DNA of 64,000 nt from Takakia lepidozioides. Taxonomy: Eukaryota > Plantae > Bryophyta. The DNA lies in NCBI GenBank assembly GCA_030704615.1, contig CM060732.1, positions 31,806,001 to 31,870,000 of the forward strand, given 5' to 3'. Positions 5,780-55,081 of this stretch are shown here, in pieces. Position 1 is the stretch's first letter; every line of letters starts with the position of its first letter. The notes under the pieces were generated by a model that was not told where the DNA came from, ran no database searches, and saw nothing but the letters and a program-made list of their open reading frames with translations. A program made the position numbers and the translations under genes.

Positions 5780-5898
5780 GTTTTTCTTTTTTTAAACAGA
5801 AAGGGGACGGGAAAAAAAAGGGGGGGGGGGGGCGTAATTCTTGTTTGTAGAGTAGTTGAGATCTCCCAAAGCGCAAGGCCTCCGTCAGGGGTCTTGAT

Positions 5899-9500: not shown

Positions 9501-12035
9501 CGGGGAATGAAACTATCTCACGTAGTGTGGTGCAATATTGGGTTGTGATTAACCTTTAACACCTAAACGGTAGCGGGTCCGTTCACTTTTTCCCAGAAGA
9601 ATGGGCCCCGCCCAGTAAAATACCACGTAAATTTTGGAAAAGCTTGAATCTGAAAATCCTGACTGGACAATATGGAGCCACCTACCCTGGCATGCCCTGG
9701 CCACACTTCGGGCCAATCAAATAAGTCTTGCCCACCATTGGAAGTGGGGCCCAGTTTTTTGGATTTTTTGGAGTTTGCAGTTGGTGAGGGCATGATGCAG
9801 GACCAAAATTGGCAAGAGTTGATCCCCACGTCCCTCTTGTTCCAACAAGCCCAAGATGACCAAATTGGAGCCCATTAGAGCTCCCAGCACTTGATCAAAG
9901 CAGAGGGAGTATGGAGTGCTCATTTGAAGACTATGCACATGTTATTGTTATGCAACTGAACTCTCCAGCTAGTTCTCTCTCTCTCTCTCCTTTTCACCCA
10001 CACCTATACATGAAATGCATGGGTGTGATTTGAACCCACTATACTGCCCTTTGGCACTCATACATGCAGTACACAAGGGGGGAGTTAGTCTTCCCCCTTG
10101 TCTACACCCACGCTTTGATAGGGGACTACACTAATTTTGACTACCACTACATGTTTAGTGCGGTTATCAAATGAAGAATTGTTGAACCCTACCCAACATG
10201 CACATTCTGAACTACTTTTTGATTCAACAACATATTGTTGCTCAGAACTATCTATACCTAAATGCAGCAAACTATAGACTTGCAAAAAAAGTGGTGGTCA
10301 TTTTGTCATGTGCTTAAGTTTCCACCTGACAGACCACAGCAAAACAATTCAGGCATATTAGCCAGCAAACATCCAACTTAACAGCGAAGAGTACCCTAAT
10401 GACCCATTCCCAAAACTCTACTTGTGTCATAGTATCTATCCAAGCGACTCTCTATATTGCCACCCCAACTCTGTCCAAATGACTCACTAATTACCTATGA
10501 CCATCTATTAATAAAACCTCTTCAAAGCCAATAAAAGCATGAAGCCACTACAGTCCAGGCAAACCATAGTATTCAAAGACAAACACACCATTACAATTAT
10601 AGACAAAGAGAAATAAAAAGAAGGTACCCCCTCCTTCACATTAACAGTTTCCTCATCTCTGCAAGAGCAAACAAAGCACAGCAATAGTTAGTAAATTGGA
10701 GCTCATATGGATCAGCCTCTACTATGATGCTTCACAAAACATGTCCCCAAACAGAGGGGGACGGCTCGGCAACAACAACCTGCAGGAGAAGAAAAAGGCA
10801 ACAACAACGTGCAAGACAATCACAAGGCCGATGGGAACCTGCCAGCAACGCGTGCAAGGCTACGTGTGAGAGAGAAGGAAACCGCGGGAAGAGAGTGAAA
10901 CAGATGGAAGCCGGCCCAACCAGACCCCAAGCCACGAAAAACCCTATTCTCAGCCATCGATTCTCATCTGCCCAATCGCTCTTGCGTGCACGATCCCAAC
11001 AATGACACGTTGTGCGCGCACAACAAAAAATGAAATTTGGGTAACATTTGCGCTTGTGACACCTGTTTAAGCCCAGACTCTAGCCCATTTCGGGCCTTGT
11101 GGGAGCCTTGTGGGCGTTTAGGGATTAAGGACGTGCCATTAGGCAAATTCATCCCCAAAAAAGTAACCTCAGCTTGCTAGTTAGGTAAGGCTACACATCT
11201 ATTCCATTACATCCAAAAAAAAAAAAATCTTACTACATTTATCTTATCTATCATATACATCCACTTAACAAATTATGGACAAATTCACCATAGGACAAGA
11301 GATATTTTTATGTTTTAATGGGGAGTTTTTTGTTTTTGGATTTTGGAAATTATGAACTTGGAGCTTTGATTAGGCTTTTGAGCCACTTGTTGATTTTCCT
11401 ACTATCGTCTCCCATATAGAATGTGGCATGGTATCCTAGCCAACTATGTCTGTAATAAGTTCAAGTCAAACAACCTTTTTCCTAGTAGGGTCTTTTGTAT
11501 GTGTTAATGGGGGGTAGGGTCAAGCTGACCTCCATAGCTTGGCAATTCAATTCAACGTATGCCAATGTCAGCCATAGATTCTTTGGTAATCAGATGTTTC
11601 ACTCAATCCCTACGGTGGGGGGGGTGTGGATTGTACTACAATAGTGAGCTTGGTAAAAATGATTCTAGATCTAAGGGTGAAATTTATAAATGTGCAGGGC
11701 ACTGAGTGGGCCCAATGTGTGACCAATTATGCTTGGCCATGCAGACAGACAACTTTACGTAGGCCCTCCTGCAAGCTCCAATTTCATGACCTATGTGTTA
11801 TTTTCAAAAAATCTGCAAGTCAAAGAATTCACTAGAAGGTATTGCTTTCAATGCAAGGACACCGGTCATGTTATCAGAAAAACTACTTCCTCGAAACCCG
11901 AAATAGGTCTTTTGTACCAATATATGCATCTACATATATGGCGACCAATGGGGAACACTCGTCCCGAGTGTAAGAGAATCCAGTGTTCATCCACTGAAAT
12001 TCGGATAGATTCATCATTCTCCGTACTTTCATCCA

Positions 12036-16276: not shown

Positions 16277-16637
16277 ATGATGTTTGGTTTGTTTTGTCAC
16301 GTTGAGATGTCCCAAACCGCGAGACCCCATCCCTGGTGCTTGGTACCGTTGGAAGCCCTCGACGAGGAGGGGTGCACGGGCTTGGTCTCACGATTTTTGG
16401 ACCCACGGTGTGGGAGATGTGGAATTCCAAGTACTTTTGGTCGCTGGAAATTCACAAAAAATAGCAAAAATGGCAAAGTGGGCATTCTTGGGACAATGGT
16501 TGAAGCCTCGACGGGAGAGATATCAAGGGAAAGGTCTCCGGTTCAAATCTGGTCGTTGGCTCTCTAGAAAAACAATTGATTAGATAGGGGACATAGATGA
16601 CACTGGACACTTGGGCCAACGGCACAGGCTACCCTAG
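16277..16637 (+). mobile_element. non-autonomous Helitron copy (same family as the array at 50466-52000)
   Basis: Reverse complement of the array unit. Ends in hairpin cttgggccaacggcacagg, then ctaccCTAG followed by T. Confidence 0.7.
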
Positions 16638-17601
16638 TTTGTAATTAAGATGGAGCCATTATGCAACCAACCAAACGTCTCGATTCATATATTGATTAGA
16701 AAGCTAGCGCTGACGGCCCCAAATTTATTGGAATAAATTTTATAAATACTCACTCAAAGTATAAAATCGGGACGGTGAGTGTAGTAAATATCATTTAGGA
16801 TGAAAAAAAACCACTGTATTTTATGTTTTTTTAGAAAGGGGTCATCATTTTTTAAATGATAATTATATTATTCAGATTATTATTAATGAATGATGATATA
16901 CTACAAGTGACTACAGATCAATGTTTTTTTCTTTTTCCACTTTTCTGAAATCGCCGCCACAAGGGTCACTTGTAAATTCTACCCAATCCTATGTTGAGAG
17001 TAACAAGGTGACATGATTATAAAAGTGGCTATATAATAGGTGTCACATTTTAACAGGTCCACGTAGGAAAAGTCTGGCTCCTAATATTTAACCATTGGCA
17101 CTTTCTGGCAAATTTTTGTATTTTTACTCCCATAATTCCTTTGTAAAAATAGCTGACCCATTTTTCAGGTCGAAAACTGATGATTTTTTGCCAAATTGAA
17201 AAACACTGCTACAAATAGTTTCAAAACAATAAATATTGGTTTATGATTCAATAGTCCCATATATAATGTATTTTTTGTTTTTATGTAAGATATTTATCCA
17301 AATATGATAAAGATTTGAATCTTACTAGATAATACTAAGTAGATAATTCATGAATTGAATTAAAATTTCATGTGATAGATATTCATGAATTGTTTTGTGG
17401 ATGAAAAAAATTGATCTCAATAATTGACATGCAAAGATTGTATGAAGTAAACTTCTTAAAAAATAGAAAAAATAAAGGCGTTGGCCATCTACTTTATGTA
17501 AACTATACACTTAAAAAATAATCGTGAAATCTAGAAATGGAATATTTTTTATTCTTCACCTCAATACAAAATAATGGTAATAAATCAAATGCAAGGTACT
17601 A

Positions 17602-22604: not shown

Positions 22605-23290
22605 AGAGAGAGATAAGACTCCGGCCGAAACCGGCGTAACTAAGAGCCACTTTGCCTTACGGCTACTGCCCCCTTTCGGGGGTGGGCCCTATAAAGAAAA
22701 CAAGTGTAAAAGGGACACCGGGTAGCCAGGTAGTAGTGGTGCCTAGGAAATCTAGAGTACCCGAGAGTACCCTAGGGTACTCTCGGGTACCGAAGAGGGA
22801 TTGGATTCGAGTTGTCGCTTATTGGTGATGATAGCTGTGAGGGAATGAAGCGTCGTGAGGTGTATGGCTTCGAAGCATTTATGGATAGAAGTGATGGGGA
22901 GTTTAAAGTTGTTTTGAAGTGCAGAGATGCTGGCATTATGTATACCCCCTCTGGTGCCAGCAGTGATGACAGTAAGCGGGTCTGTGACCCAGCCCAACCG
23001 GCGGATAGCAATGATAAGTGGTGCATATTTTTGGCGTTTTTTTAGGATGGAGGAGCTTGGAAAGCGGTCATTGCAGTATTTAAATTCTATGAAATGTATG
23101 GTAATGGCTCTGGAAGGGGCAGTGGGAGGGGAAGCGTTAATGGGGAGTCCCTGGACTAGTAGGATATCCGGGCAGAGTCTAGTGGGGCAAGTGCAGGGTG
23201 CGTGAGGTCGGCATACATACGGGAGTAGCCATGTTGGTACTGTATGATCAGGCTCGGTAGGTGCCTTGTGAAGGGATTAAAACATGTCTC
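22605..23290 (-). mobile_element. Dualen/RandI-like LINE 3' part: restriction-like endonuclease and 3' UTR
   Basis: Minus-strand translation CTCPTRLCPDILLVQG...IHFIEFKYCNDRF...KRQKYAPL...GWVTDPLTVITAGTRGGIH fits a PD-(D/E)xK RLE. It is followed by a 3' UTR and (TC)n tail. Confidence 0.75.
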
Positions 23291-23579: not shown

Positions 23580-24620
23580 TGACCGCGCGCGCTCAGGCCT
23601 CGTCATCCGGGCCCCTCACCCATGAGGCTCTACAATGGGCGCGCCTCGTCGCCTCTTCCTCCCCTCCGCCATCACTATCATTATTCTCACTCAACAAAGT
23701 TCACCTAATCACCACCACCCCCTTCTCCAACTCCCCCCTAGGTAACGCCACTAGCTGCCATTGAACCCAACCACCTCCGCTACAGGCGCACCCTGCCCTT
23801 CCTCAAATATCTCCGCCACAAATAACCCACTATAACCCTGTTGCTGTTAGTCCAGAAACCCCCATGCACCTCCATACCCGCAAACTTCCCCACTCGCCTC
23901 AATCATCTTTTATCCGGCACCCATGGCATGTCCCTCACCATCTACCCACCCTCACCACCACATAGTCCTCCCTTCAAATCAACCTATAAGCCAAAACCAA
24001 ACAAAGATTGGGCCATGGCACCCCCCCGCCCTATCACCATCCACGATATAACCTCCACGGATGCCCCCCCGGTACATTTGGGGCCTATCGCCCCCAAATC
24101 CCCCCCACTTCATTCACACTATACTGATGGCTCCCACTCCGGCTCAGGAGCCGGATACGACATCTACCACGCCGCCACTAACAATGGTACCGCCTACCGA
24201 CTTCCCGGCCCCACAACCATACTACGTGCTGAACTCATGGCTATCTTTGAAGCTCTTTCCCAACCCACTCCGTTTCCCACGCCATACTATATTTTTACGG
24301 ATAGTCTCACTTCACTCTTTCTACTTCGTAACCACCTCGCATGTCCTCCTCCCATCACCACCACCCCGATTGTAACCTTATTACTGCTATTATTAACCTT
24401 GCTATCTCCATCAACAAACCCATCCATATTATCAAAGTCCGCTCACACACCGGTATTAACGGGAACGAGGAGGCTAACCTCCTCGCGCAGCTGGGGGCCT
24501 CCAAACCCCCGGTTGAGCCCTCGGCTGACCCCATACATATTTCCCTTCACACCCATTCTGGCTGATTCACCCGGTTCCTGGCCCCCCCGAACCCCGGCCT
24601 ATCCGTAACCTCCTTACTAC
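23580..24620 (+). mobile_element. inverted LINE segment encoding RNase H
   Basis: HYTDGS...TILRAELMAI...YIFTDSLTS and KVRSHTGINGNEEANLLA (ORFs 23841-24608, 24341-24565) are RNase HI motifs of non-LTR elements. Confidence 0.8.
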
Positions 24621-25735: not shown

Positions 25736-28700
25736 CAATTTAAGGGGGTACATTTAAATTTAGGTGGGAAAATTTGAATTTGAAATTTGAAGTGATGTCA
25801 GCTCTTCCTGCTGCTGTAATTAAGGGCCTGATGAGGCATACTGTGGGCAGTTGTCATTCTAGTGCCAAATCCTGGTGTGATGGTGGCTTTGTCTTCTTTC
25901 AATTTTAAATCAACTTGTAGCACCTGATTTAATTGTCAGTAAATGCATTTTTCAGATATAGAGTGAGTGGTTATCCAACGTTGAAGTTTGCGGCCAGTTT
26001 GAACACTGTTGCTGCCCAAGTGAGTCTTGAAAACTCTCACATTTTCACCAATAGTGTATACAGAAGTGTTGCTACAGAGTCATGAAACTTGAATGCCCAC
26101 GAACTGGGTTTACTTACTGAGGTTTGGGCTCGGGGGTTGTTAGAGGGCTGTCTGGGACTTGGACAGTTTTATGGGTTCTGTGGGGTACCCTTAATTTTTG
26201 TGCAGACTTGGGGATGGTAGATTTAGACCAACACAGGCCTTAGGGGAAGTAGACAGGCTTGCACAGTTAGACACAGCTTCACACAGCTTGTCACAGTCGG
26301 ATACAGCCTGACACAGCTTGTCAATAGACACTTTTCGATGTACTCCACCACAAACTATCTAATCATTTCTGGCACACTAAAGTGGCATCTGACGCACAAA
26401 TCCGACAAACACTTAAATTCAGATACGTTCAGTACATGGGACATCAGCGTAATCACACCTTCTGGCCAACCATATACCCATCGCCACACTGCCCTCTTTG
26501 CTCCAACATATCGCTAGACACAACCATGTAGTATGACATATATATAAACTTTTACTGCGACGTAATGAAACCATATGGTTCTCATTCATCAATGCTGGCA
26601 CCTACCAAGGTCGCCCCTCAGAAGAAGAGGGAAAATCTTCCTCTCCCAATGCCCCTCATTCACCGAGTGCTTGAGTTCAAGTTATTTTCTAATTGAAGGG
26701 CCAACACTTCCTACCCCAGTGCCTAAATACTTTGTCTTAGCAAAGGAGTGGCCAAAATTCCTATCATAATCCAATAAGTTCACCAAGTTCAATAAGGTGG
26801 TTCTAAGCCCTTCAAATCAATAAGTTCAATCAGTGTGATCAACGCCATTCACGCTATAACGTGCATCATGTGCATGTATCCTATTTAAATAATTTCGCAA
26901 ATCAGAAATACTGGAAAATAAAAGAAATTAAGAAAATCATGAAAAATACCTTCCATATGGGAAATCACGTGGGGAATCCAAAGATCCCCTTGGCGCCTAA
27001 AGATGCCCTTTGGGAACCCCGTGGGAACCTAATGAGAACCGAGGAACACCCGAGAACCGTTCCCTGCCGCGGGGAACTGCCGCGGCCCTATCGGATGAAT
27101 GAATCTCGCTGAGAGCTCATCCCTGCCACTACGTTCGTTAGACCGAAATATGCATGCGTAAATAATAAAATAACCACTGGTGGATCCAATCCAGATTTCA
27201 CCCCCTTACTTTATTTTAAGGCGCTGATGCGCTTTCTCTCCGTGGAACAAGTCATCCTCTACCTTGGGCTCTGACATAAAGGCGCACTGTAGCCGAGTTT
27301 TTAGGACAGAGTACTTTCTCTCCTCCCTTGTCTCTTGAGGTCTCCGCCTTTAGCTCACTGCTCATAGACCCGCTTGGCTCTCTCTTGGAGTCCTAAGAAC
27401 ATTCTCCTCCAAAGCTACGTTCTCCCAAAATCCTAGATTTTATCTACCACTGGCGCCTTAGATAATGGCTCCTAACCCTTAGATGGGTATAAATTGAATC
27501 TAATAGCTAAATGTAAGAATACCTCCCTTTAAGGGAATTTGCAAACACGTTGTCCGCTGGGTAAAATGTCCCCGCCACGTGGCGGAGCGCAGATCCGCGC
27601 GTAACGGTCCAAGCCGTGGACCGCTGCGGTTAACGCCGGCGTCCGCCGGTCCGTCTCAGCTTTTGGTTATCCTGCGGGTAAAGACCCGCCCTCTGCTCGC
27701 ACGCTTCAGGGCCTCACGCCTAAGCCACGCGGCTGATGTACTTGATCTCATTACGACTTAAGGTCAGCGTTGGGGCCCCGCACGTCGTGGCTGGGCCACG
27801 GCTACCGCAACGCTTTTAGTAATCGAGTGCCTACTCTCTAGGCAGGATACCAGACCAGAATTCATGCCAATACCAAGGGAAAGTCAACCAACATCAAACT
27901 GAAGAAGAACTTCAAGCTTTGCTTGGAAAATAAATGAATCACATATAGAAATGGTGAAATTGTAAGATGGGATCAACATTTCTATGCGAGAGTGCTTGGG
28001 ATGCTTTACCGACTCAAGTAATGGTACTCTATGAGGCCTCCACTTGGGCTCTCGTTCATAACTCCACACCAGCCCCTCCTACTCGTCCTCAAGTCACTTT
28101 CCTCCACATGAACTTGCCCTCTTCCTTCACAAATGAAATGGCTCAAAGGCCCTCCATTGAAATGGCTCAAAGGCCCACAAGCTAGGCCACTTGCCTTAGC
28201 TTACAAGAATTCTACCTAACTAGGGAGCTTCAAGCTCCACTCCTTAGGATCTAGCCCCTCCTCAAGCCAAAAACTATCAAGCCTAATGGAAAATACTCAT
28301 TAAACTATTGTTTCCTTGGAGGATCTATAATATAATATTCAACATGGATGAAAAGTCTTAGAGGCAAATGAAATCTGGCTTTTCATCCATCCATTGGATG
28401 ACCAGTTGGCGCGAGTTGTCATTTCATCCATCCAGCTCCTCAAGGCGAATTCCAGGATTTTTCATCCATCCAAGAAGTAGAAATGCAAGTAATAGGCCAT
28501 GTAAGTGTTGTTGACTCAATAATTTGGCCCCGCTGCTAATCAGCTCCATAAATCACCAAAGTTGGTGACAAACTACAATTATATACCTCGTATCAGCTTG
28601 TAAATTCTCAGCTCCATCGGTGGTAAAATGTTGCGCTTCTTGCCATTCGTCGTATTTTCGCTACACACAGATTTTGTGGTATTTTTGGAAATCAAATCCC

Positions 28701-29231
28701 TGGTGCTGGCTTTGGGGTCTTTGACCCTGCCACTGAGTCATAGGTTGTCCGGAGTCCCCTCCAGTTGTCCCGCACCGCTAACAAGTCCACGCTTTGCCAT
28801 TTGAAGTCGTCCTAACCTGCTGTCATTCCGATGCGACCAATTGTTTTGTTGCGATATTTCATCGCTGTACATTTCGCTTGCATCAATTGCCAAGCTCCTC
28901 GCCGTGTGTTCCTACTGGACTTGAAAGGCGGGAGGAAAGAGAGATCGTAATCTGAGACTGGAACAGTCGTCCTGTAATGTTTGAACATGATTACCTCGCC
29001 GTTTCTGGTACCGAATTGGCCGCCTAATCTGCTGTCGATGCAGCTTCCTACGGTCATCTTGACACCAGAGTTCTACTCCATGGTCATCGCAGACACTGTC
29101 TAATTTCATATGTGCTTTACCAACGATTTCCAGACAACTAACAAACTAACATGTTTTGGCAGTACAATGCCGAAACCGCTTGTCTTATGATCAAAACAAT
29201 CTGAAAAGAAAAGTGTACCAATATATGCATC

Positions 29232-32200
29232 TACACCGGGTGGTGGGTGCGCGAGGCCACCTCCGGACCAAGTATGTTGGGTAGCGGAACCAAGGGCTCC
29301 GAATACACAGTCTTTGGGGTGCGGGTTGTCATAAGAGGAAAGCTCAAGGGGGCATGTGAGTGGGCTAGAATAGTATGAGTGTGTAAGCTTAAATGTGGTG
29401 ATGAGAAGTTTGAGAATGTCTGGTGGGATGGTGCTATGAGTATATGCAAGTGCTAGTTTATCGAGGGTGCGGGCTTTTTTTTGGGGGGGGGGGGGGGGGG
29501 GTGTGTCGCGAAGGTACCGGTCTAAAACCAGTACGCAAAGTCTTTTTTGGCAGTTGTAATTGGGTAGTGTGAGGGGTGAAAGTGGAATATTGAGACCAGA
29601 GCCAAGCAAGTCTGATGTTGGAAATTGACCCGGCGAAACTGCTGCTGAGTGTGTATATGTTGGACATATTAGGACTAAGGCATATGATGGGGGAATCATG
29701 CGCAATGTCTTTGTTTGGGTTACATTCGGTGGTTTGTATATGCATATTTGGGGCAGCTAGGGAGGTGCGGATGTAGCGGGCGGCTATCAATTGGGTTTGG
29801 GAGGAGTGGTGGTGGTGGATGTGTGCTAGATATTTGGTGTTAGTTCGTTTGTGGAAATTGATTGGAAGATCACGGTTATGGGCGGGGTCGCAGTCCTCAG
29901 GGGCCCCAAGAGGTCTTCTTCGATTTGTCACGTGTTGTCTTCAGTAGAATAACCTGTCCATTTACAAAGGGAGAATGTATCAACACTAGTAGCGTCAAAT
30001 GCATCGAGTGAGGTTTGGGTTTTGATGCCAAGGATGGCCTCAATGATGAAGGCCTCGGGATGGTCAAAGTTGGTTGGGTGAGGGGGGGTAGCTACTAGTG
30101 GGGAGTCGAGAGGGGATGTTGGTATTGGCAGCTAGCTGCGATGTTGGGGAGAGGGGGGGCGATGTGGGTGAGGAGAAGGGAGATGAGTCCTAGCAAAATT
30201 GAGTAGTAGTGCGTTGGGAGGCTTTAAGCTATTGGAGTATTAAGGCCGTTGGGGCATAACGGAATTATGGGAGGAGAACTTGTCGGTTGTGGGGAAAAAG
30301 TGAGCAAGGGAGGTCACAATCAATGGTACAAGAGGTAATTGGGTGACAAAATAGGGAACGAAGGTGAAGCATATATCAGCGTGTTTTGATAGTACCACGG
30401 GAATGTTTCAAGGTAAATTGACACGGAGTTAGCAGTCGGTTCCCAGTGGCTGTAGTGAGCTGAGTGATATTAGTAATATGGTATGCTTTGAAGTAGGCAA
30501 GGATAAGTTTTCTTTGACGGGGGTGTGAAGTTTTGAATTGTATGAGGAATGGGCTGTTGAGCCACGCGCGTTCAAGTGGTGATACGGAGTTGGGGTAACC
30601 CGAGAGGTCAATTTGTATGCTGATTCTCATTTGGCGTAAGATGAATAGTGTGCGAGCGGTAGGGGAGTGAAGGCAGGATTGGGGGTGGAGAGATGGGAGG
30701 GAGTATAGTCCATTATATATATAGGCCAAGTGTTGAAGGAGTCCTCTAAAAATTAGCCCTAGACGTCCAAGGTCGTTGAGGGCCTCAAGGAGTTGTGAGC
30801 CAAGGGTGCGGGCATATGATGTAATCAAGGGGCTAGATCCTCTCCCATAACTATCTTGTGGAAGCTAAGTGAGAGCATTCGGGGTACTGGTAGGTAGACC
30901 ACAAATGCGTTTGGTGAGCTGAATAATGTTTTTGTCAGGTAGTCTAATGTCAGGTAAAGAGAAGGGGGCCGCATGAAATAGGTTGGATTTGTGGATTGAG
31001 GACTTTTTGGATGATAGCTAATTTGGGGCGGATGGAGATCGGAGACTTGAGTAAGACTAAGCTCATGTTGGTTAATTTGGAGAGGGTTGTGTTCTTCTGT
31101 ATATGCCACGTGAGCGAGGGAACCAATTGTATGCCTAAGTAAGTATAGGGTTCGTCCGGGCCTAAGAAGGGAAATGGTTTTTGTTGATAGTGTATGTGTA
31201 GCCTGCAGTGGGAGGCTATCGTGGATTTTGAGAACTTGCTTTGGTGTGTAGCAATGGTGACCGCGCATTTGTGTAGGCTTAGTTCCATCCCTGACCACTG
31301 GTTGAAGCGGAATAGTTTGTCAACCTGTCGGTTGAGGTGTTGAGGTTTGTGTGTGAGAATGGCTAAGTCATCCGCATAGGCTACTGCAAAGATTTCATTG
31401 GGAGAAGTTTGTACTGGTATCCGAGGTTGTCGCGAGCAAGCCACCGCAATAGAGGTTCAAGAAAAATAATAAATAGATATGGGTTCAGTGTGTCACCTTG
31501 AATGGTGCCATGCAATATGGGGATAGAGGGGGTGGAGCCGTAGTAGGAGCCAGAGTCTTCAGTGGTACTGTTAGTGTAAATATTACCAATAAGGTGAATA
31601 GAATCAATGGGGTATCCTAGATCCGTCATAATGGCCAGCAAGCGTGGGTGATCTAAAGAACCAAAGGCATTTTTGAAGTTGATATACAGGAGATAGATAT
31701 CTTGTTTCGTGAGTTTTGCGTCTTCTAGGGCAGATATGAGGTATTGTATTTGTCTGGTAGTGCTACGCGTAGCACGGAAGCCTTCTTGGGGGTCGCTCAG
31801 AATACGGTGTTGTTCACCATAGGTGGAGAGCATCGTGGTTAATGTGTTGGTAAATAGTTTGTATATGATGTTTGCGACGGCGATGGGCCTGTAGTTGTTG
31901 AGGTCTGTGGGGTCGTTTTTTTTAAAACAGTAGGATGGTCCGGCTGTGCTTCCAAGAGTGTGGGATACGATGTAATTGGTAACAGAGTCGGAAGAATTTC
32001 AAGAGAAGAGCGTGGAATTGGGAGTCTAATGCTTGTAGTATGGAATTGGGAATGAGATTTGGGCCTGGGGCCTTTGATTTGGATAGAGCTTTTAGGCAGG
32101 AGCCATACAAGTCTATTGTGAAGAGGTCAAGAATGCGATCAGAAGGGGGGCCTCGCTTATCAAGTGAGAAGCCATCAGATTATGCCATGGGTAGTGTTTG

Positions 32201-33560
32201 ACTTTATATATGCAATTAGATGTGTGATGGTTAGGATGCATATAGTTAACTACAGTAGGTGAGTAGGATGACGAGGCCTAGAGCCAAATTTCTTTGTTGA
32301 TGTCGTTGGGTTTGGTTAACAGGTGGCCTAGTCTGTGTTTGAGACAGTCAATAGGTGGGTTAATTGCAGGGTTGAAGATGGCTTTGTGGGCCTTTTTAGG
32401 GTACTCGTTTAGGAGTTGGCCAAATGAAGCGACAAATTGTTTGTGGTTATCCGTGGCTTTTTGCTTTGTGATAGCATCCCAATCGAATTTGGAGAGGGAG
32501 GCGACCCACTGAAGAAGGTGGGATGGATCCACCGGTGGTGGCATAAGCGATTGGCATATAGGCAGCGTGTTTAGACATGTGATGCGGGGGTCAGTTTTCC
32601 AATTATTATACGATGGGGTCGAGGGGTTGGGGATGACAACAAGAGCCCGGCGTATGGTATGATAGATGTCTAGATGGGAGGTCCATTCGCGTTTTTGAGT
32701 TCGGGTAAGGTAACCTCCGTTTTATTTTGAACGGGCGGTCTGGGGGAGATCAGGGGGGGGCGGAGCATGTGGCTACTACACTTTTAGTCATTTCTTGGAT
32801 TGTAGAGGTGAGTGTAATTTCGGCTTCCATCCATGCAGCATTGGGGGATGCAAGTAGGTTAGTATCGGAGAGTATTAGGGAGATTTTGTGTATGAAGTTT
32901 GAGGAGGCGGGGTGGAAATGTTTTTTGAATGCTTTGATGTTGTGTTGGGGTATGGGTGAGAGTATACGGGGTTGAGGAGGCGGGGTGTGTATATCTCGAA
33001 TGGGTCGGAAGGGGATAAGGGATGGAGGTAGATAAGCGGATATTGGGTAATGGTCCGAGTTACATAAGCTGCTGATGTGTATGTGACTAAGAAGGTATGG
33101 TGGGATTTCATTGTTTAATTTGAGGTAGAAACCATCAATAAGGCTTAGGGAGGAGTAGTTGAGACCTCCCTGCCTGGAGTAGTGGTAGTCCGCATGAATG
33201 TATTTGAGTTGTAGAAGCTGTATGAATTTGGCCCATTCGTGGTCTGCTGATGATGGAGGTTGGTGGGTTCCGTTGTATGAGTGGCCTAGCATAGCAATGT
33301 CTTTGTTAAAGTCTCCTGCTAAAATAAAGTGGTGGTGTTGGTTATCTGGATGAGTGAGAGTGTGGGAGATAATGTTCCGTATGTCGGGTATGAGAGGGAG
33401 GTCGTCGATATGTGATGGCATATACAGATGTATAAGGGTGATTGGACATAATGCTGATGGGTGTAGATGGATGATTTGAAGGTGAGACCGGAGGAGGCGA
33501 GGGACGGTTATTTTTGTGGTGGTACAGGGCGAGTAATGTGTGAAGAGAATACCGAGTGCA
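29232..33560 (-). mobile_element. Dualen/RandI-like LINE body (APE, RT, chromodomain, MTase-like fold), frameshifted
   Basis: APE motifs FILAGDFN, SLIDGFY, SDHYPI (32750-33646). RT motifs KAPGPN, QEGFR, NFKNAFGS, GTIQGDTL, AYADDL, YTYLGI (30950-32110). Same C-rich composition as the RNase H and RLE pieces at 22.6-24.6 kb. Confidence 0.8.
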
Positions 33561-33569
33561 ACTCTCACA

Positions 33570-35600
33570 CCTAGTTGTGTGTTGCCCCACATCAGCAGCT
33601 CCAGCGTCTCTGAATGTGACTTGATGCCCCTCATCGATTGCCACATAATCCTTCAAGGTTGACTGGTGTCCTGCAGTAAGAGCCCCAAGCTGTTGGGAGT
33701 CCCACATCAACTGAGTCTCTCATAGTCCTGTAAAGTAATCTGCTGCTCCACTTCAGTAGCTCCAAGATTTATCAAATTGGTTTGATGGCCAACGTCAAAT
33801 GCCCGGGACTCCAATTTAATCTGGTTCCTTATGTGAGGGAAGAGATGAGGTTTGAGCAGATCCATCGACTCAGTCTGATGACTATTTGCAACGTTAATGT
33901 CTACATCTGCCGCTAGTTCGGTGGGCATCACATGATCACCCAAAGTGGTACTTGAACCTGAGTCATCACATACGAGCTCTTGAGATGCCTTCGATCTGTT
34001 TGTCTTTTGACTTCCGCGTCAAAGATGTGCATCTTTAGGTTCGTATTCTCACTCGACAAATTTTTTTCTTGTATCTTGTAAGTTTTTCCTTGTAAGCTTT
34101 TGGACTCTTGCTGCAAACTACCAGAGGCACTTGATAGGCACACCTTGATCTTTTTGTGGATCACTTTCTCAAGTGTAAGTGGCAAATCGCCAGCCCTGTG
34201 CAAGCAGCAATCCCATGGGTTTGAGCTCCTGAGTAGCTGGGATTGCTGAGGTAAGTCGTGATGGAAGAGCTCATGAACAGTTCGCTCTTTGCTGTCATAT
34301 AGAAGGATTATAAGGGCGGGAGCATTCTCTTGTAGCATCTCATTGTTAACATCGTAGTGTTAAAATTTACCATGATAACGACAGCAGTTGAGTTGCTCGA
34401 TTCAGGACAGCCTCTGTCAGCTCTATTGCAGCTAAGCTCTTCAGCCGGTCTTGGAAAATATGCTCATGACATTCCCCAAAAATGCAATGGCAACGGATGG
34501 GAATTTTGGTTTGATTACCGAGTTCCAAAAGCCCATCACTAAAGTTAACTTGGTAGTTGATATGACCCTGTTGAGGCTCCGTCCAACCCCACTTGATTTC
34601 ATTCTCAAACATAAGCTGTGAGATTGCAAGGGGCCAGCCTTGAACGGGCAAGTGAAGCATTAGGTAGGGGCTAATAGATCTACAGATCCACAACGTAATT
34701 AAGTCATCCGTAGCCAGGCTTGGAGTGGAGTAGGAAAGCCCAAGCAGATGGGGCAGCTTTGCCCTACTGTTCATGATGGTGTATTCGAGATGGAACTTCC
34801 GCTGAGGGTCGATGACATGCATAATACATGAGAGGCTGCAAAGGGGGTTAATCATGGTGTTGAAAATGGAGCCTCTCATACCTGCAATGACTAAAACTAG
34901 CTGCAGGTCGGACAACGCTTGCTCGGGCAAGAGAGCAAGGCCAACATGATTGGTTTGGTTGTGGGAGTAGGCCGGCCAGTGGTTGCTATAGAATATGCGC
35001 AGCTCGTATGCACGACATGACTTCTTGCAGGGCAGCCAATCCCAACATGTATCGCCACTAAGAGCCTCTGTCCGTGCCTGCACACACCCAACCTGGGGCT
35101 CTACAAATCGTTCAAAATTCCAAAATCACCTTGGTGGCTTCTTCAGCAGACCAAGATCGTGGGAAGCCTTTCTTTCCTCCCTAGTCTCAAACAAGTTGTG
35201 GAGAAGAGAGCGTTTATGCTCCGCTTGGGAAGTGACAAGTCTTGTAAAGATTGCCTTGGTGCATTTAGTGCCATAATCACTATGGGAAACGGCTAGCAAA
35301 ACCATATCATGATAGAGATCGTATGCTGCATGTGAAAGTAAGAGACGTGCCGACTCAGACCGTCGTTCGCATAAGTCTTGAGGAAAAAAGCGTGAGTGCA
35401 TGTAGGTGCACCATTTTACCGCGCAAAATGTTTTTTGAGTGTTTTTGAGGCAATGAGAGCCGATTTGTACACAGACAGCGACTAAACATGACCATTTGTA
35501 TCGGAAACGGTGAAACATCGACATGGCTACTGGTATGGCCCACAAATGGAAGAGGTCTGCGACGTCCATGAAGCCAAAGCGCTCATGAGTTTATGTGATT
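33570..35600 (-). pseudogene. disrupted coding-like region of unknown family
   Basis: Chain of overlapping minus-strand ORFs (35126-35569, 34367-35083, 33928-34338, 33707-33943, 33342-33710) downstream of a ctgcag acceptor near 35610. No motif recognised. Confidence 0.35.
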
Positions 35601-36403
35601 AGGGTACCTGCAGGGAACAGCAGGGCGTGCGATTCCAGTCGACCGTTCGAATATCTAGGGGCCGATTAAAATGACTGCAGGCAACGGTTTGCTGCCTGTC
35701 ATCACCTCAACATCCGATCATTATTCAAGCAGAGGCAAGTTATGAGAGCTTGACCTCAATGACAAACTACCCACTGGAATATTCTTTGATTGCCTATTCC
35801 ATCCAAGGATTTTTGGATGTCATCCATTCTTTTTTTATAGTATTTCTAGTATAAGTAGGTTAGGATTTTGCTCAAGACTTCACTTGTGTTTTTTTGCTTG
35901 TTAGTTGCTTGAAGCTAGCTTGAGAAGCTTGCTTTATGTTTCGGCAACTAGTTTTTGTTGTGAAGTTCCTAGATTGCTTGTTGGCTTAGAGCTTAGCCTA
36001 GATGTTTTAGGCAAGCTTGGAGAAAGCATCTAGTTTGTGCTAGGGAGACTAGGGAGATCCTATGACCTAGTGTGTAAGGGCCAAGAGTCATTTTTATGTG
36101 AAAAAAGAGAACATCTTCCCCAAAAAACAAAGAGGTTTTGTCATTTGAGAGTGTGGTGAGCCCTTGAGGAGTGAAGTGGAGGTAGGAGCAACAAACCCCA
36201 TAGGAGAGGTGAGCACTACCCCTTCCCTTCAAGTTTTGGTAGCCTACTTAGCCAAGTGACCCCATTTGAGTGGAGAGATGATAGTCTTACCCCTTGTTCA
36301 TGTGTGATGCATTTTGGTGTTCTCTTGCTTGTCCATTGTTGTTGGAAGCTTATATCTAACCTTAGCTTGGTCCTAGCTACCTAAAGAGTAGTGGGAGCTG
36401 GGG

Positions 36404-41699: not shown

Positions 41700-44600
41700 G
41701 GCGGGGTGCTTGACGTGTTTCCAGTTCACGTCTCTCTCAAATTCCGGCGAGGCCGTGGAGTGGAGCTCTGAGGTCTCTCCAGCGCTGAGGGGGGAGAGCA
41801 TTCCAAAATCTTCATTGCTAGGGAACCCTGTCCAGAAATTTCTAGTTTCTGAATACCTAGTTGTACATGCTCGTCGCTTTGACAAATGATGCCATGGCAG
41901 GCCCACGTCGCTCTGATCGTGGCATGGATTGCTGGCGCCTGCCTGGGGGTCCTGTGACAATCTGCAACACATTTTGTCCAAGCTTTTTTCGACTCCGTTA
42001 AAAGGTCTTTGTACACCATCGCCAACAAAGCGGAGGTACTGATTGTCTCCTTGCTAAAGGTCGTTTTACATCTAGCACGCCATAAGTGCCATAACGTAGA
42101 TGCGCGAAGAGTCTCAAAGACCGGACATGGATCAAAGGATCGGGCCCTGGCTGTTTTGTTGTAATTAAGTAGCAGATCCAGAGGGTCAATGGCTGAGAGG
42201 CTCCAATGTCTGTAGAAGACCTTGATCAAGGGCCAGATTTTGGCTGGAGCTGTACAGGCAAGAAGGCAGTGCTCATGAGTTTCAATGATACCCGAGGAGC
42301 AGCATCCACATAGTAAAGCTTCATGGAATTGCGACCATTCTCCCACTTTTAGGGCTCTGTTCGCTACTTGCCATAAAAACGCCAAGATCTTGGCAGGCCT
42401 AATTTTTAGCCAGATAGAAGACCAGATTGCTGGCCAGTTCTCATTCAAGAATCCAAAGTGACTCCATTTGCTATTCCACTTAGTGGAGAGGGATGGCTGG
42501 ATGTTAAGAGCCCTATATGCCTTCTTGGGGGTGTACGTAAGAAGGGGTGTTGCAGTGCGGCCAAAGGCCCATTCCCATTCTTTGGGGTCCAGCTGGAGGT
42601 CCGCTAGAGGTCTTCCCAGGATCCACACAAATATGGAGGCATTAACCCAGGACATGACATGTACGGTAAGAGGCGGTTGGGGATCAAACTCTTTGAACTT
42701 AGATGACCAATTTCATATTCTCACCGGGGTGTGATTGAATCGAGGGAAGAGGGTTTGGGATTGAGAAACCAAGATCAGAACTAGAGTTTTGGGGTTGATA
42801 TGGTAAGCGAACCCTGAGAAGTGGGTGTCTGTGGCAAAAATCACCAATAGGATGGTGAGTCTGTTGCTTATGACTCCCAATGTCCAGAAGTTCGTGGAGG
42901 GGGTCATTGGTCCCGCCTGCAGAGACACGGTCCAGGTTTGAGGTATAGAATTTATGACCGTCTGAAGCCTGGCCTTGGGTCTGATTGACCCCAGTATAGG
43001 GCTCATTGTGTCAATATGCAGGAAGCCTGCAGGCAATCACAGGTGTTTTAGTTGACTGATGCCCCTGCTGTCCCAGGCAGACCACTTTTTTGCCAGCGAT
43101 TTTTCAGTTGGTGTGGGCACGTTGGTGTTCAAAAATAGGTGCTGGCGGAGGGTTTCCTCGTAAGTTTCTGGCTCTTTTTTGCGGAGAAATGGTCTCAGTG
43201 CAGCCCAAGCTTTCCAGATGACGTTCCATAGGGACGATCCCACCATTTTGTGCTTGAATCCTTGTGTGATCCAGCGAATGGAGGGGTGCCATTTAGAGGT
43301 CTTAAGGGGGCTTTCCATCATCAGATTTCCTACCACCAAAAACTTCCACCAGCCTCCTTCTGGGCCTAAGAATCTTGGCAGCCACTTCCCACTTTGAGGA
43401 GGGCTGTGATTTGGATCTCCGGGTCCAGAACCCCCAGTCCTCCTAGTTTTTTTGGCTGGCAGATCTGTCTCCAGGAGACCTGTGGCTTGACCATTTGGCC
43501 TGCTTTGTTAGCTCCCCATACAAAATTTTGCAATAAAGCTTTGTATTCACATATTTGCCTTTTGGAAGGGCGCCAGGATGCTGCGTAGAACCATAGGCTA
43601 GCTGAAAGAATCTGGTTGGCCACAAGTGCCGACCTGTGATTGAGAGGAACTTAGAGCCCCAAAAAGTGAGGTTTCTTTTGATCTTGGATAGAATGGGTGC
43701 AAATCATTGCTCATCAGTGATATCAAGCCCATAGGTGTACCCTAGCAACGTTGTTGTTTGGCTAGGTTGCAACCATGAGAGGCCCAAGGCCTGGCCCCAA
43801 GAGGGCACACATCCCAGAAGGGATTTTGATGTGTCTCCAACGAGGATGGCACAAGTTTTGTTCCAGTTGACCTTGAAACCAGAGGCTTCACAGAAGGCCT
43901 CCAAAGTTGTTGTCCAGGTTGGTTTGGCTTGCTTGAAGCATAAGGAAAGTGTCCTCTACATACATGGATTCCCTGATGTAGGCAGGCTGGTTAGTTATGT
44001 AGTTAGTGATTCTAAGACCCAAAATCTGCCTGTCTGCTTGTAGCATGTATCCAAGCGTGTCGGCGGCAATAATGAAGAGGAAAGGAGCCAGGGGGCAGCC
44101 TTGACGGTCAGATCGATACAGGTTGAATGGCTTTGACACTGAACCGTTGATGATTACCCTGCTGGTTGACCCATTCAACAAAATGCGCACCCATTGACAA
44201 AAGGAGGGAGGCAAACCAATCTTGGCCAAGGTGCCCATCAGGAAAGGCTATTCTACTCTGTCAAACGCTTTCTAGTCTAGAAGGATAGGGCAATGGCCTG
44301 TTGGGTTTGAAGGGCATACTGGGGAAGCTCTTGTGCAAGAAGAATGTTATCCATGATGTATCTCCCCTTAATAAAGCCCGATTGGCTAGGTCTGATGATT
44401 GAAGGAAGAAGAGGCTGAAGACGTAGAGCCAAGCTTTTGGTTATAATCTTATATGCAACATTGAGGAGAGTTATGACACCTGCTGACAGCTTAAGCTTAA
44501 TTCTACTCTTGTAGGTCTTGGAAGAATTGCAGATTTTGTTTTGCTTCCAGGTAGGTTTCGTAAGTTTCTTGATCACAGCGAGGAGATTCCATTCTTCTCT

Positions 44601-45450
44601 GACAGACTGACAGGCACTTGATGAGTGCCCTTACCCTCTTTTTTCTAGTGGCTGCAATTTCTCTACTCATCTGCTAACTGGCTGCCCCCACTGCTTTGAG
44701 CTTGGCCATGAACTTATCTGATGGGTTTTGGGAGACAGTCCCAGCATGAGACCAGCTGTCCGCAAGCCTTGTGTGAACTCTGGGATCTGTAGCAGAGAGG
44801 CATTCATTTTGTAAAGACCCTTGCCCCTTGGGCGAGTGTTTGGAATATCCAATGAAGCCTCGATGACGGCGTGATCAAAGCCGGGGTGGATGGGCTGTTG
44901 GGCAGCCTCGGCCCTCCGGGACCATTGGATACAGTCCAAGGAGGCGTAGAATCTGTCCAATCTAGCCATCTGGAGATCCACGAGAGCTCTGTTGTTTGAC
45001 CAAGTGAAGACTGGGCCAAAAGGGGGCATAGGCCCCCAGTTTGCCACTTCTATTTCCACCAAATTGTGGTTGAGGGTGAGGGAGTGCCAGTGTTGTGTCT
45101 CTACCACGTCTGGGTTAAATTGTCCAATCCCCTGCCTGTTAGTAGGAGACTCAACCATATTGAAGTCCCCTGCCAACACCCAGAAATCTATGTCCTGTTT
45201 CAGTTCCATATTGGTATTTATGGATTCCCAGAGCTGCGCCCTCTCTACTGGCGAGTTTGGAGCATAAATATTAATTAACCCCAGCCGGCCTCCTTTGGCT
45301 GGAAGGTCTATGGCACAGTACTGAACTCTGCCTGGAACCCATGAGCCTTCCGAGACTATATATTGAAAGAGGGATGGGGAAACCAAGATGGCGGTGCCTC
45401 CTCTGGAACCTTTGGAAGCAACTAGGGTCAAATTGCTGACATCAAATTGA
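41700..45450 (-). mobile_element. L1/Tx1-type LINE ORF2, 5'-truncated and frameshifted
   Basis: APE (INIYAPN, LAGDFNMV, ARLDRFY, FDHAVI; 44667-45578). RT (ITLLNVAYKI, QSGFIKGR, RQGCPLAP). zf-RVT-like C-terminus (CGCC...ETHEHCLLAC, LWHLWRARC; 41726-42655). Confidence 0.9.
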
Positions 45451-46113
45451 TGCTTGTATGAAGATATTTCTAGGGGAATTTGGAAAGCCCGAACCAATTG
45501 CTTATACCAAGGTAAGTCCAGTGAGCCTAAGATAGTCTCTGTTCCCTCTTGTTCCCACAAGGCTAAGACAAACAACAACTCATTAGTACATCTTCTTCAG
45601 TGCCAAGGGTGTACATTTTTTCCTGTAGTTCGTGTGTCCATGGATGGGTAGATGGTCAACTGGAAGCTGCAAAATCAGTGGCACAATTGATAAAATCAGA
45701 CACTGCTAATCAAGGTACCTTGTTCAACACATTTCACCCTATTTTTCGGCCCCAAATTTTCATGTTGAATTCTGCAAGTTAGTTGGTTGAGTGGATCTTT
45801 GATAGATTGGAGTGACTTTGACATGATACTGCCAATGTGACAACTGGAAAGTATCCAGAAACAGTAACAGAGACGAGGAAAAGCTGTGGGATGAATACTC
45901 TTCTGACCCCAGTAAGTGATGGGACAACCGAGGCAAAAAGGTGAATGCCTGTCAGATTACAAAGAGTAGCAGATGCAATTGCCCATAGGAATTAGTGTGA
46001 TTAGTTGAGCTGGGTGCAATTGCACTCTCCCTTTCCTCTCTACTTCTGTTTGCTGTTCAAAGGTAGTATCCCTGCCCTGAGTTTACATTAAATCAGTCTG
46101 GTGAGCAACTGTT

Positions 46114-50110: not shown

Positions 50111-50465
50111 GTTAATACCATGCACAACTAGGTAGTAGGATTTGAACCCGATATCACCAGGATGGCACTCACAGGTCTGCTACTACAGGTAATTTTTAGA
50201 AAAAACGAAAAGAAAACTAGAAGAGTAGCCGAACACACATCTCCCAAATCCCATATGGATTTTGAGCAGAGGCAACATGGCTATAGAGGAGATGGTTCTG
50301 GGTTCAAATCCACATTCGTATTTTTGTCACACAGATGAAATTAGACTATGGCGCCCATGTGGTTGATTAATACTGGATCTACAATTGATTGATTATAGAA
50401 TGCAACCACCAATCAGGAAGGGTAGAAATAAATGCGCGCTTGAGGACAAGTAACATAACACCATA

Positions 50466-52000
50466 CTAGGGTAGCCTCTGCCCTTGGCCCAAGTATGCAG
50501 TGTCATCTAAGTCCAAGTGCAATCTTAAGTGTCCAATGTCATCTAAGTCTAATCATTTTTTTTCCACAAAGCCTACGACCAGATTTGAACCGGAGACCTT
50601 TTCCTTGATATATCTCATGTCAGAGGCTCAACCATTGTCCCAAGGAGAGCCCACTTTGCTCGTACCCGAATTTCCAGCGACCCAAAGTACTTGAAATTCC
50701 ACATCTCCCACACCGCAAGTCCAAAAATCATGAGACCAAGTCGGTGCACCCCTCCTCATCGAGGGCTTTCCAACCGTATCAAGCACTGAGGGTGGGCCCC
50801 GCAGGTTGGGACATCTCAAATCTACAAAACAAAACAAAACAAAACAAAACAAACGTCTCGATTCATATTTTGACTAGGGTAGCCTATGCTGTTGGCCCAA
50901 GTGTCAAGTGTAATCTAAGCCCTGCAAGTGCATCTCCTATGTCGAGGCCCAAGTGCGACCTCTAGGGTAGCCTCTGCCATTGGCCCAAGGGTCCAATGTC
51001 ATCTACGTCCAAATGCATTTTTTTTCCACAGAGCCTATGACCAAATTTGAACCGGAGACCTTTCCCTTGCTATCTCTCATGTCGAGGCTCCAACCATTGT
51101 CCCAGGAATTCCCACTTCGCTATTTTTCGCGAATTTCAGCGACCAAAAGTACTTGAAATTCCACATCTCCCACACCGCAGGTCCAAAAATCATGAGACCA
51201 AGCCCATGCACCCCTCCTCGTCGAGGGCTTTCCAATGGTACCAAGCACCAGGGCTGGGGCCTCGCGGTTGGGGACATCTCAAATCTACAAAACAAAACAA
51301 AACAAACGTCTCGCTTCATATATTGACTAGGGTAGCCTGTGCCGTTGGCCCAAGTGTCAAATGTCATCTAAGTCCAAATCCAATTTTTTTTCCACAGAGC
51401 CTACGACGAGATTTGAACCGGAGACCTTTCCCTTGATATCCCTCATTTCGAGGCTCCAACCATTGTCCCAGGAATTCCCACTTTGCTATTTTTCGCGAAT
51501 ATCCAGCGACCCAAAATACTTGTAATTCCACATCTCCCACACTGCAAGTCCAAAAATCATGAGACCAAGCCAGTGCACCCCTCCTCCGGCTTTCCAATGG
51601 TACCAAGCACCAGGGCTGGGGCCTCGCGGTTGGGGACATCTCAAACCTACAAAACAAAACATAACATAACAAAGCAAACGTCTCGATTCATATATTGACT
51701 AGGGTAGCCTATGCCGTTGGCTCAAGTGTCCAATGTCATCTAAGTCATCTCAGTCTAATCATTTTAAACAAAACCTACGACCTGATTTGAACCGGAGACC
51801 TTTTCCTTGATATCTCTCATGTCGAGGCTCCGATCATTGTCCCAAGAAAGCCCACTTTGCTATTTTTTGTGAATTTCTAGAGACCAAAACTACTTGAAAT
51901 CCAACATCGCCCACACCGCAGGTCCAAAAATCACAGTCGGTGCAGCCAGGGCTTTCCAACGGTACCAAGCACTCAGGGTGGGGCCCGCAGCTTGGGACAT
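50466..52000 (-). mobile_element. head-to-tail tandem array of a ~365-410 bp non-autonomous Helitron
   Basis: Units 50466-50873, 50874-50961 (partial), 50962-51326, 51327-51698 and 51699-52000 (truncated). On minus, full units start TCAA(T/A)ATATGAA and end in a hairpin plus CTAG. Most junctions read CTAG|TC. Confidence 0.75.
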
Positions 52001-52397: not shown

Positions 52398-52585
52398 TGT
52401 CGTGCGCATACATATCGCTACACAACTACATCGCTGTCCAAAACCACACAACACATGTGCACGCCACACACTAGTATATCACTAGTCCACCACTAGTCCA
52501 GCCACTAGTCCAACCACTAGGCTACAACTAGTCAGTCACTAGGCTGCCACTATGCTGCCCACTATGGCAGTCACTAGTCCACACA
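52398..52585 (-). repeat. LTR copy A (188 bp)
   Basis: TG...CA ends. 186/188 identical to 52917-53104. Confidence 0.9.
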
Positions 52586-52916
52586 ATAGATAAAGAAGAA
52601 GAATACAAGCACAAGCTCATGCGAGCTCACAAAGCTGAAGCATAAACTCATGCATATATAACCTCATCACTCAAATACAAGTCAAGCCAAGTGCACCCCA
52701 CGCGATGGGGAATCCACACTACGGCGCCATAGCTAGGCGCGGTGAGGCTCAACTCGAGAAAGATGAGCCTCCCGCGCTTGCTGTGAAGATAACCACTCCA
52801 AGGCCTAAATCTGCCTTGACCCCTGGATTGACACTTGGGCCAATCCCAAATGTCAATATGTAAAAGCTAGCTATTTCCTAGCTAGTTTCACACTAGTGGT
52901 ACAATAACTTGACAGC

Positions 52917-53104
52917 TGTCGTGCGCATACATATTGCTACACAACTACATCGCTGTCCAAAACCACACAACACATGTGCATGCCACACACTAGTATATCA
53001 CTAGTCCACCACTAGTCCAGCCACTAGTCCAACCACTAGGCTACAACTAGTCAGTCACTAGGCTGCCACTATGCTGCCCACTATGGCAGTCACTAGTCCA
53101 CACA
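52917..53104 (-). repeat. LTR copy B (188 bp), 3' LTR of the full element
   Basis: Directly follows the polypurine tract (cgcccccctagct on +, 53107-53119). TG...CA ends, internal cactag repeats. Confidence 0.9.
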
Positions 53105-53364
53105 ATCGCCCCCCTAGCTGGTGCTTAGGTCCCTCTAAGTCCAGGTAGCCACAAGATGTGATAGTGACCATAGCCTCACTAAGTCCTCCACCACTATCCC
53201 TACTACACTCAAACTCGATAGATCAAGAGGCCGGGTGCAAGAGTTGCCCCATCGTTAGTCGCCGTCTTACAACCTGTGAACTTGAGCTTGGGATCTCATG
53301 TATTGACTCCTATGAGCTTGGCCTCCCATGTCTTGTTAGCTGCCTCCAGTCATGTCCACTGCCA

Positions 53365-53592
53365 CTATCCCAAGCAGTGTGGACACAACCAATCTCCGTT
53401 AGGAACCTTCTCAAGAGGTGGTGTCAAGCATCCCATATGCCAACCCCTTGAGCATCGATCACACACCAGCATGGTGGCTGCCCCTTTGGCAGACCTACAG
53501 AGCATGCACCTCAAACCTGCAGGTACCACTGCCAAGTTTGGGTCAACTCTGCCATCGACATTGGGAAGGTGACATGGCGCACAATTACGCAC
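53365..53592 (-). pseudogene. PHD finger at the C-terminus of Gypsy pol
   Basis: CMLC...MLVCDRCSRGWHMGCLTPPLEKVPNGDWLCPHC: C4HC3 PHD consensus. Confidence 0.9.
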
Positions 53593-53601
53593 ATGGTTCT
53601 T

Positions 53602-54700: not shown

Positions 54701-55081
54701 AAGTAGGTGTATCCCCTCCCACTTGAACCTCTTGGCTTGTTGCAGGATCCGATCCCTCTCCCTGGCAGTTACAGTGGCTGTCGTGTCTCCCGTGCGGAGG
54801 TAGTCCAACATAGCCGAATCCCCATGTATATCTTTGGCACCACCTGGCTCATCACTAGCCTCAGGGTCCTCAGATACTCCGTCTACAGTCATCCCTGTTG
54901 TAGGTCCAACCTGACCTCCCGATGCCAAAATACACAAAAATGCAGATGCGTGCCATCTCGGCACCATCTCCTCGTCCGTCTCACCATGTCACCGAGCTCC
55001 AGTATCATCCTGTTGGCTCATGCATGGATTGCAACTCAATCCATCCGCATCCCGATTGACCAAACCCGGTCGATGCACAAC

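Follow-up and report, generated by a model that had tools for sequence, protein, structure and literature searches.

The insertion sites of LINEs are usually explained by their endonuclease. Chromodomains are found in other retroelements, including some of the DIRS type. The available text of PMC5348765 gives chromodomains for three LTR groups only (Chromoviruses, Chronos and CoDi-I), and that of PMC6338049 names them as LTR accessory domains. In these elements, which include the Ty3/Gypsy chromoviruses (MAGGY and Tcn1 in group I, plant elements in group II), the chromodomain is part of the retroelement polyprotein and lies at the C-terminus of integrase (PMC3350952, PMC5348765, as far as available). 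According to the accessible part of PMC3350952, the residues Y24/W45/Y48 form a methyl-lysine pocket, and the MAGGY chromodomain binds H3K9me2/3 and was proposed to target integration. Adenine methyltransferases have also been placed in retroelements: available excerpts report PCIF1-clade domains in DIRS elements (PMC4738411), and DAM domains in DIRS and LTR elements next to chromodomains in LTRs (bioRxiv 10.64898/2026.05.21.726589). The main text of the latter never names Dualen, RandI or PCIF1; it raises the possibility that Euglena DAM-LTRs whose RTs are LINE-like are chimeras.

Dualen/RandI LINEs encode an APE-type endonuclease, a reverse transcriptase (RT), RNase H, a zinc finger and a restriction-like endonuclease (RLE) in one ORF, and the domain lists in the available sections of these reports comprise a Josephin or C48 protease, SET, APE, RT, RNH, CCHC and RLE (PMC9977147, PMC5029228, PMC8557442). 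A PHD domain appears in a shared figure legend of this literature in which the element is not specified. In the parts available, the described lists name neither a chromodomain nor a PCIF1/CAPAM-like domain; PMC5029228 and PMC9977147 list Dualen domains without a chromodomain or adenine methyltransferase, and the excerpts of PMC5890265, PMC8557442, PMC3747384, PMC3956500, PMC4427930, PMC2864245 and PMC12477314 contain no such Dualen domain either. Our literature search thus found no chromodomain or CAPAM-like domain described in Dualen or other LINEs. The chromodomain-like module reported here is apparently an undescribed family trait of Dualen, a novelty that is provisional because the founding Dualen paper, Repbase and supplements lay outside the search.

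In the 64-kb stretch of DNA analysed here (the window), an earlier note had singled out a minus-strand segment at 30050..29928 as a chromodomain missed by the ORF track. Its 41 codons translate exactly as that note had read them, FIIEAIL...CKWTGYSTEDNT*, with a TGA at 29930-29928 (full translation before the TGA, FIIEAILGIKTQTSLDAFDATSVDTFSLCKWTGYSTEDNT). The surrounding frame is open only from 30131 to 29931, 67 codons, and was therefore missing from an ORF list with a 120-aa threshold. The TGA is premature: the compact chromodomain-like module spans 29907..30050 (minus strand), residues 292-341 of the relative P0276 align to 30056-29907 (tblastn), and the frame shifts near 29907. In translation, the three positions of the classical (group I) aromatic cage Y24/W45/Y48 are filled as F (30050-30048), W (29960-29958) and Y (29951-29949).

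The proposed chromodomain identity is borne out by which families the segment matches, but not by the curated Pfam threshold. PF00385 (Chromo) was the sole Pfam family matching at E ≤ 1, with E 0.034 and 14.5 bits up to the stop and E 0.01 and 16.1 bits with X at the stop, and PDB and Foldseek searches agreed; these 14.5-16.1 bits fall below the Chromo gathering cut-off of 25.1 bits. A PDB sequence search at E ≤ 10 returned 14 matches (best E 0.088): twelve are chromobox or chromodomain proteins by name, a thirteenth, 4quc, holds the chromodomain of Rhino, and one carried no name. With a seven-row profile that included the window piece, seven of ten PDB matches were named CDY/CDYL chromodomains (best E 0.0048); a 19-row full-length profile returned no named chromodomain in the PDB at E ≤ 10. 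A profile of 18 relatives, built without the window, matched 30062-29946 at 11.3 bits (E 9e-5), its only positive match across the six frames of the 64 kb (the next scored -3.1), and a second relatives-only profile gave the segment 22.4 bits against at most 6.2 for 355 shuffled decoys.

An AlphaFold model of the segment (19-row alignment, pLDDT 71) consists of two strands, a long hairpin and a short helix, and lacks the third strand of the chromodomain sheet. When this model was searched with Foldseek, whose scoring takes in sequence besides shape, all 39 entries among the matches listed were chromodomains, the best being Chp1 (probability 0.99, E 0.063, TM 0.52); none reached E ≤ 0.001 and the rmsd was 4-6.6 Å. 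An ESM Atlas search with residues 1-85 of the relative P0272 gave no usable match. Altogether, the single tests are weak and all point to one family. The segment is more than a chance resemblance, and a chromodomain fold is predicted for it from matches that are weak in score and consistent in identity. Like HP1/CBX, CDY and Chp1, the window family reads F-x-I-E-x-I-L ... L-C-K-W-x-G-Y-x-x-E-D-N-T-W-x-x-E-E-x-L with three cage positions filled; it differs from them in that strands 1 and 2 are separated by some nine residues more, and in scores below the curated cut-off.

We then compared the segment with other copies in the organism, using contigs from four runs of one sample, which count as one observation, aligned to 29150-30400. 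Each run gave 268-364 contig records, which are not a copy count; most were less than 95% alike, so the LINE family has many diverged copies. The suspicion that the TGA is a mutated TGG proved right: the base at 29928 gives TGG in other copies (70-79% of depth, 9-10 contigs per run), and Trp occupies this position in 18 of 18 aligned relatives. The TGA is decay of the window copy. Among 40 of 235 base differences, we read a Tyr in other copies where the window has Ser before LCKW, and a Phe at the third cage position; by this reading of the listed differences, the other copies are nearer the classical Y-L-x-K-W-x-G-F/Y motif.

The segment lies in the same LINE as the RT, as had been noted, between the RT and a CAPAM-like domain both in the window and in relatives. 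This is not the chromovirus layout: chromoviruses, Chronos and CoDi-I, as described in the available sources, are LTR elements with the chromodomain at the integrase C-terminus, whereas the window family is a LINE without integrase whose module is internal. It also differs from the chromovirus domain in its longer beta-hairpin and in the occurrence of split and PHD-nested forms.

On the minus strand, ORF2 of the window copy begins with a decayed APE-type endonuclease at 32753..33652 (Pfam Exo_endo_phos_2, E 0.0019), to which ORF2 of the relative L001 matches at 33529-32753 (tblastn); upstream of about 33700 there was no match to family proteins. The RT, split over two frames at 30953..31998 (Pfam RVT_1, E 5e-17 and 3e-9), is up to 70% identical to metagenome relatives. 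It is followed by a conserved region with stops and frameshifts at 30391..30978 (37% to P0276 residues 20-214, tblastn), the chromodomain-like module, a conserved domain with an ECNP.KDI motif at 29587..29880 that precedes the methyltransferase core (by alignment; profile-profile 99.5%), and the first half of a PCIF1/CAPAM-like core at 29235..29462, which runs to motif IV AHPP (Pfam PCIF1_WW, E 3.2e-4; 47% to P0276 residues 484-559). Residues 20-559 of P0276, an intact relative, map to minus 30978-29229.

At 29235 the LINE is cut by a very high-copy repeat, past which other copies continue. On the LINE the sequencing depth ranges from hundreds to about 3,000; at 29150-29233 it is 8,000-37,000, and loose contig ends lie at 29235. 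The foreign DNA, whose repeat end adjoins this break, extends over 26650..29234 (lower border approximate) and gave no Pfam match in six frames; 22 bases of the repeat end (29150-29234) recur at 11913-11934. Beyond it, part of the LINE lies on the plus strand. The distal part of this inverted segment, the post-RNase H region with a Cys/His zinc-finger motif, is at 26343..26623 (P0276 residues 934-1049, tblastn E 3.6e-10). The proximal part at 23618..24508 holds the second half of the methyltransferase core and RNase H (tblastn): residues 539-550 of the relative P0286 match at plus 23618, which places the helix after motif IV there, and residues 582-839 at plus 23751-24502, with RNase H itself at 23895-24508 (Pfam RNase_H, E 1.9e-6). 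The RLE and ORF2 end return to the minus strand at 22755..23249 (P0276 residues 1049-1110, tblastn E 2.6e-16), the RLE part at 23249-23061 being 56% identical to the end of P0276. No Pfam family matched this region; we take it to be an RLE from a PD..D/ExK-type motif, PDILLV...IHFIEFKY, recognised by eye. A perfect 34-bp palindrome lies at 22757-22790, at the end of ORF2.

Since both breaks are contiguous in P0276 (near residues 559 and 1049), which spans the chromo, methyltransferase and RLE parts in one protein, this is one element whose middle was inverted in place and interrupted. For the same reason, a second, twin-primed copy as the source of the plus-strand RNase H and the RLE was dropped. 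No inverted repeat was found that would explain the inversion. The order APE-RT-chromo-MTase-like-RNase H-RLE put forward in the earlier note is thus supported through P0276, with the zinc finger between RNase H and RLE, but here the stretch from the middle of the methyltransferase to the zinc finger is inverted on the plus strand. The window copy is dead and rearranged, and has no capacity to make the protein.

APE and RLE together define Dualen/RandI (PMC9977147, PMC5029228, in the parts available), and by this definition the window element, with both APE (33652-32753) and RLE (23249-23061), classifies by its domain content as a Dualen/RandI LINE. RNase H lies between RT and RLE, and the window family and its relatives share APE, RT, RNase H, zinc finger and RLE with the described elements, from which the window copy differs in lying in a plant-type genome, to judge from a GIL1/IRKI domain at 461-1006, and in being dead and internally inverted. 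Twelve of 22 long relatives combine RT, PCIF1 and RNase H in a single ORF, two with Josephin matches. An N-terminal cysteine protease is present in relatives, as Josephin in P0131 (E 2e-4) and as Ulp1/C48 in L021 (E 2.7e-6), whose full 2735-aa ORF2 has C48 protease, APE, RT, RNase H and RLE and no chromo module. No 5' protease region was found in the six frames of 33701-36102 in the window, where the copy seems truncated or interrupted. In an RT tree of 30 rows, which took in Josephin- and C48-bearing elements but neither a named Dualen reference nor outgroup LINEs, the window fell in a 100/99 clade with nine compact-type metagenome relatives. The close relative L001 has a two-ORF layout, with an upstream ORF of 1276 codons (49-3876; no Pfam match) before ORF2 (3845-10228).

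We further investigated how widely the module occurs. Of 953 candidates from the RT search, 204 were relatives, nearly all metagenomic and at most 70% identical, and those of sufficient length carry a colinear segment at the same place, a slot fixed between the RT and the PCIF1/CAPAM-like methyltransferase fold in Dualen/RandI LINEs. The segment is likewise kept in the organism's other copies, so the expectation that it would recur across the family was correct. A profile search gave 37 matches, 34 of them new proteins, from which the 18 aligned relatives were taken; the corresponding region of a distant relative, used as query, returned 841 cluster representatives at E ≤ 0.001. No relative passed the Pfam Chromo cut-off (the best, P0241, scored 21.9 bits), and Chromo matched one of 38 relatives at E ≤ 0.5, two of 74 at E ≤ 0.1 and four of 60 at E ≤ 1. 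In the 18-relative alignment, neither Trp column varies (18/18). Judging by these alignments, the chromodomain-like module is a family trait and not a capture peculiar to the window copy. One compact-looking member is named as coming from the green alga Cymbomonas.

In a census of 71 slots, scored by profile against 355 shuffled decoys and biased to module-bearing proteins because the searches were seeded with module-bearing queries, 27 were compact (26 and the window), 33 split, four unclear and seven without a module, the last two classes being called from score plus eye. Proteins entered the census if at least 170 residues precede the anchor; P0241, L021 and the window were added to these, and four cluster mates were excluded. 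The split form begins with the first strands as far as the cage Trp, continues with an insert of 40-100 residues and ends in a W-E-P part and helix. A PHD finger sits inside the slot in 12 of 74 scanned proteins, five of them above the Pfam cut-off. The split-form profile fails on the compact form and on the window (-1.0 bits), and one protein, P0188, scores with both the compact and the split profile. With the split profile blind to compact forms, we infer a common origin of the two from their position and from the chromodomain matches of each.

The domain downstream of the slot is predicted to be a homolog of PCIF1/CAPAM, with a strong CAPAM-like fold that comes from modelling a relative. 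A 60-row profile matched only CAPAM in the PDB (E 1e-12), and the model of the relative P0201 (pLDDT 79) matched CAPAM with Foldseek E 3e-10 and aligned to 6irx with Z 19.6 over 235 residues (rmsd 3.2), the next best hit having Z 8.9. The range of the model aligned to 6irx, 247-528, takes in the domain preceding the methyltransferase core as part of the CAPAM-like fold; the comparison hardly probes the chromo part. The downstream region of the compact clade matches the 60-row profile of distant relatives at 99.5% (profile-profile), and a word-based search with the window's methyltransferase half found none among 906 candidates. While the fold is that of PCIF1/CAPAM (6irv, 6irx), the domain is embedded in a LINE ORF2 and the catalytic motif IV NPPF is changed, to NPEY in 50 of 87 scored relatives and to HPxN or FPxD, without Asn, in nine of nine proteins of the window's clade. 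The window copy itself lacks NPPF and reads AHPP. Without this Asn, the domain in the window's clade is probably a dead enzyme and at most a binding module. One 4100-aa protein, P0227, is a Dualen-like ORF in which APE, RT and a PCIF1-like domain are followed by a C5 DNA methylase (E 4.3e-9), a LINE carrying two methyltransferase-type domains; it gave no RNase H match and has no chromo module.

What the module does can be approached by analogy. We give about an even chance to the reading that, in Dualen/RandI ORF2, it binds methylated histone tails and thereby biases insertion sites. In active copies, the module would hold the complex of ORF2p and element RNA on nucleosomes; HP1 and the group I chromodomain of MAGGY suggest methylated H3K9 or H3K27 as the probable mark. 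APE and RLE would then nick DNA close by, and the RT would copy the element RNA at that place. Chromodomains rank first by Pfam, PDB search, seven-row profile and Foldseek alike, and the PHD finger, a second type of histone reader in the same slot, is counted for chromatin reading. Against this reading weigh the sub-threshold Pfam scores, the third strand missing from the model, the cage aromatics lost in relatives, the failure of the split profile on compact forms, and the seven slots without a module, which make it dispensable.

The cage residues also leave room for a less probable alternative, in which the module has a chromo-barrel fold and is no histone reader. It may instead bind nucleic acid, either element RNA or target DNA, or have a structural or protein-contact role in ORF2p, packed on the CAPAM-like domain. 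Only the window copy's family retains all three cage aromatics. Among the 18 compact relatives the first position is F/Y in 13 and non-aromatic in five, the third is aromatic in none, and their long hairpin contains much Lys/Arg/His; the split form has the 40-100 residue insert in place of what follows the cage Trp. The module is always directly 5' of the CAPAM-like fold, and chromodomains serve also in dimerisation and DNA/RNA binding, as stated in the available part of PMC3350952. Against this, the window family has the complete cage, PHD fingers within the slot suggest chromatin reading, and the seven slots without a module still keep the downstream domain. Loss of cage aromatics in some lineages is a likeness to group II chromoviruses, as far as these are described in the accessible text.

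The neighbouring domain suggests another role, which we consider rather unlikely: a self-regulation kit in which the CAPAM-like domain would be recruited by the chromodomain to chromatin or nascent RNA of the element itself and deposit N6-methyladenine there, independently of insertion-site choice. CAPAM is by far the best structural match of that domain, and chromodomains occur together with adenine methyltransferases in LTR elements (bioRxiv 10.64898/2026.05.21.726589, available text). Such a role fits the NPEY lineages better than the window's. The clade of the window, with its Asn-less motif IV, speaks against it, as do available statements that DIRS copies of the PCIF1 clade are likely inactive (PMC4738411) and that eukaryotic DAMs lacked activity in E. 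coli (bioRxiv 10.64898/2026.05.21.726589). The weak single-sequence scores and a nearby Gypsy element might suggest that the resemblance arose by chance, or that the window copy took up a fragment of a Gypsy chromovirus or of a host gene; both are very improbable. The 26 compact relatives and the organism's other copies have the segment in colinear position, the family profile matches this place alone in the window, and that Gypsy element ends in a PHD finger with no Chromo match in the frames scanned; the family alignment already largely refutes the idea.

If histone reading by the module is true, it would be an independent arrival at chromodomain-guided targeting, in a class without integrase. 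The CAPAM homolog in Dualen adds LINEs to the DIRS and LTR elements that have captured adenine methyltransferases. A broader proposal, which we advance only tentatively, is that Dualen LINEs carry an old, widespread and undescribed cassette of a chromatin reader and an RNA-cap-methyltransferase-derived domain, and that it uses histone marks to steer target-primed insertion. The reader would be a chromodomain in compact or split form, in some cases with a PHD finger nested in it, and the CAPAM homolog would follow. Dualen would then be the first LINEs to have a histone-reading targeting module of their own, as chromoviruses do, and the NPEY lineages would have their own adenine writer as well. 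Active Dualen insertions are recorded in Chlamydomonas (PMC9977147, available part), and together with the compact, split, PHD-nested and module-free families as built-in controls they make the targeting idea testable.

Other features of the window include the decayed Ty3/Gypsy element at about 52500-60200 (minus strand), with gag, protease, RT, RNase H and integrase, a C5 cytosine-methyltransferase-like piece before the RT (57750-57046, tblastn E 8e-17) and the PHD finger after integrase (53508-53374, Pfam E 1.4e-10); it resembles KnitGypsy-Dnmt3 of Klebsormidium as described in the available part of PMC5890265. A second, unrelated decayed LINE occupies 41729-45596 (minus), with APE at 44670-45596 and zf-RVT at 41729-42712. 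A tandem array of ~370-460-bp units lies at 50465-51936, with one inverted copy 34 kb away at 16283-16638, and a 10/52-bp minisatellite at 61300-62490. Near the start of the window, a GIL1/IRKI C-terminal domain is encoded at 461-1006 (minus; Pfam E 3.6e-9).
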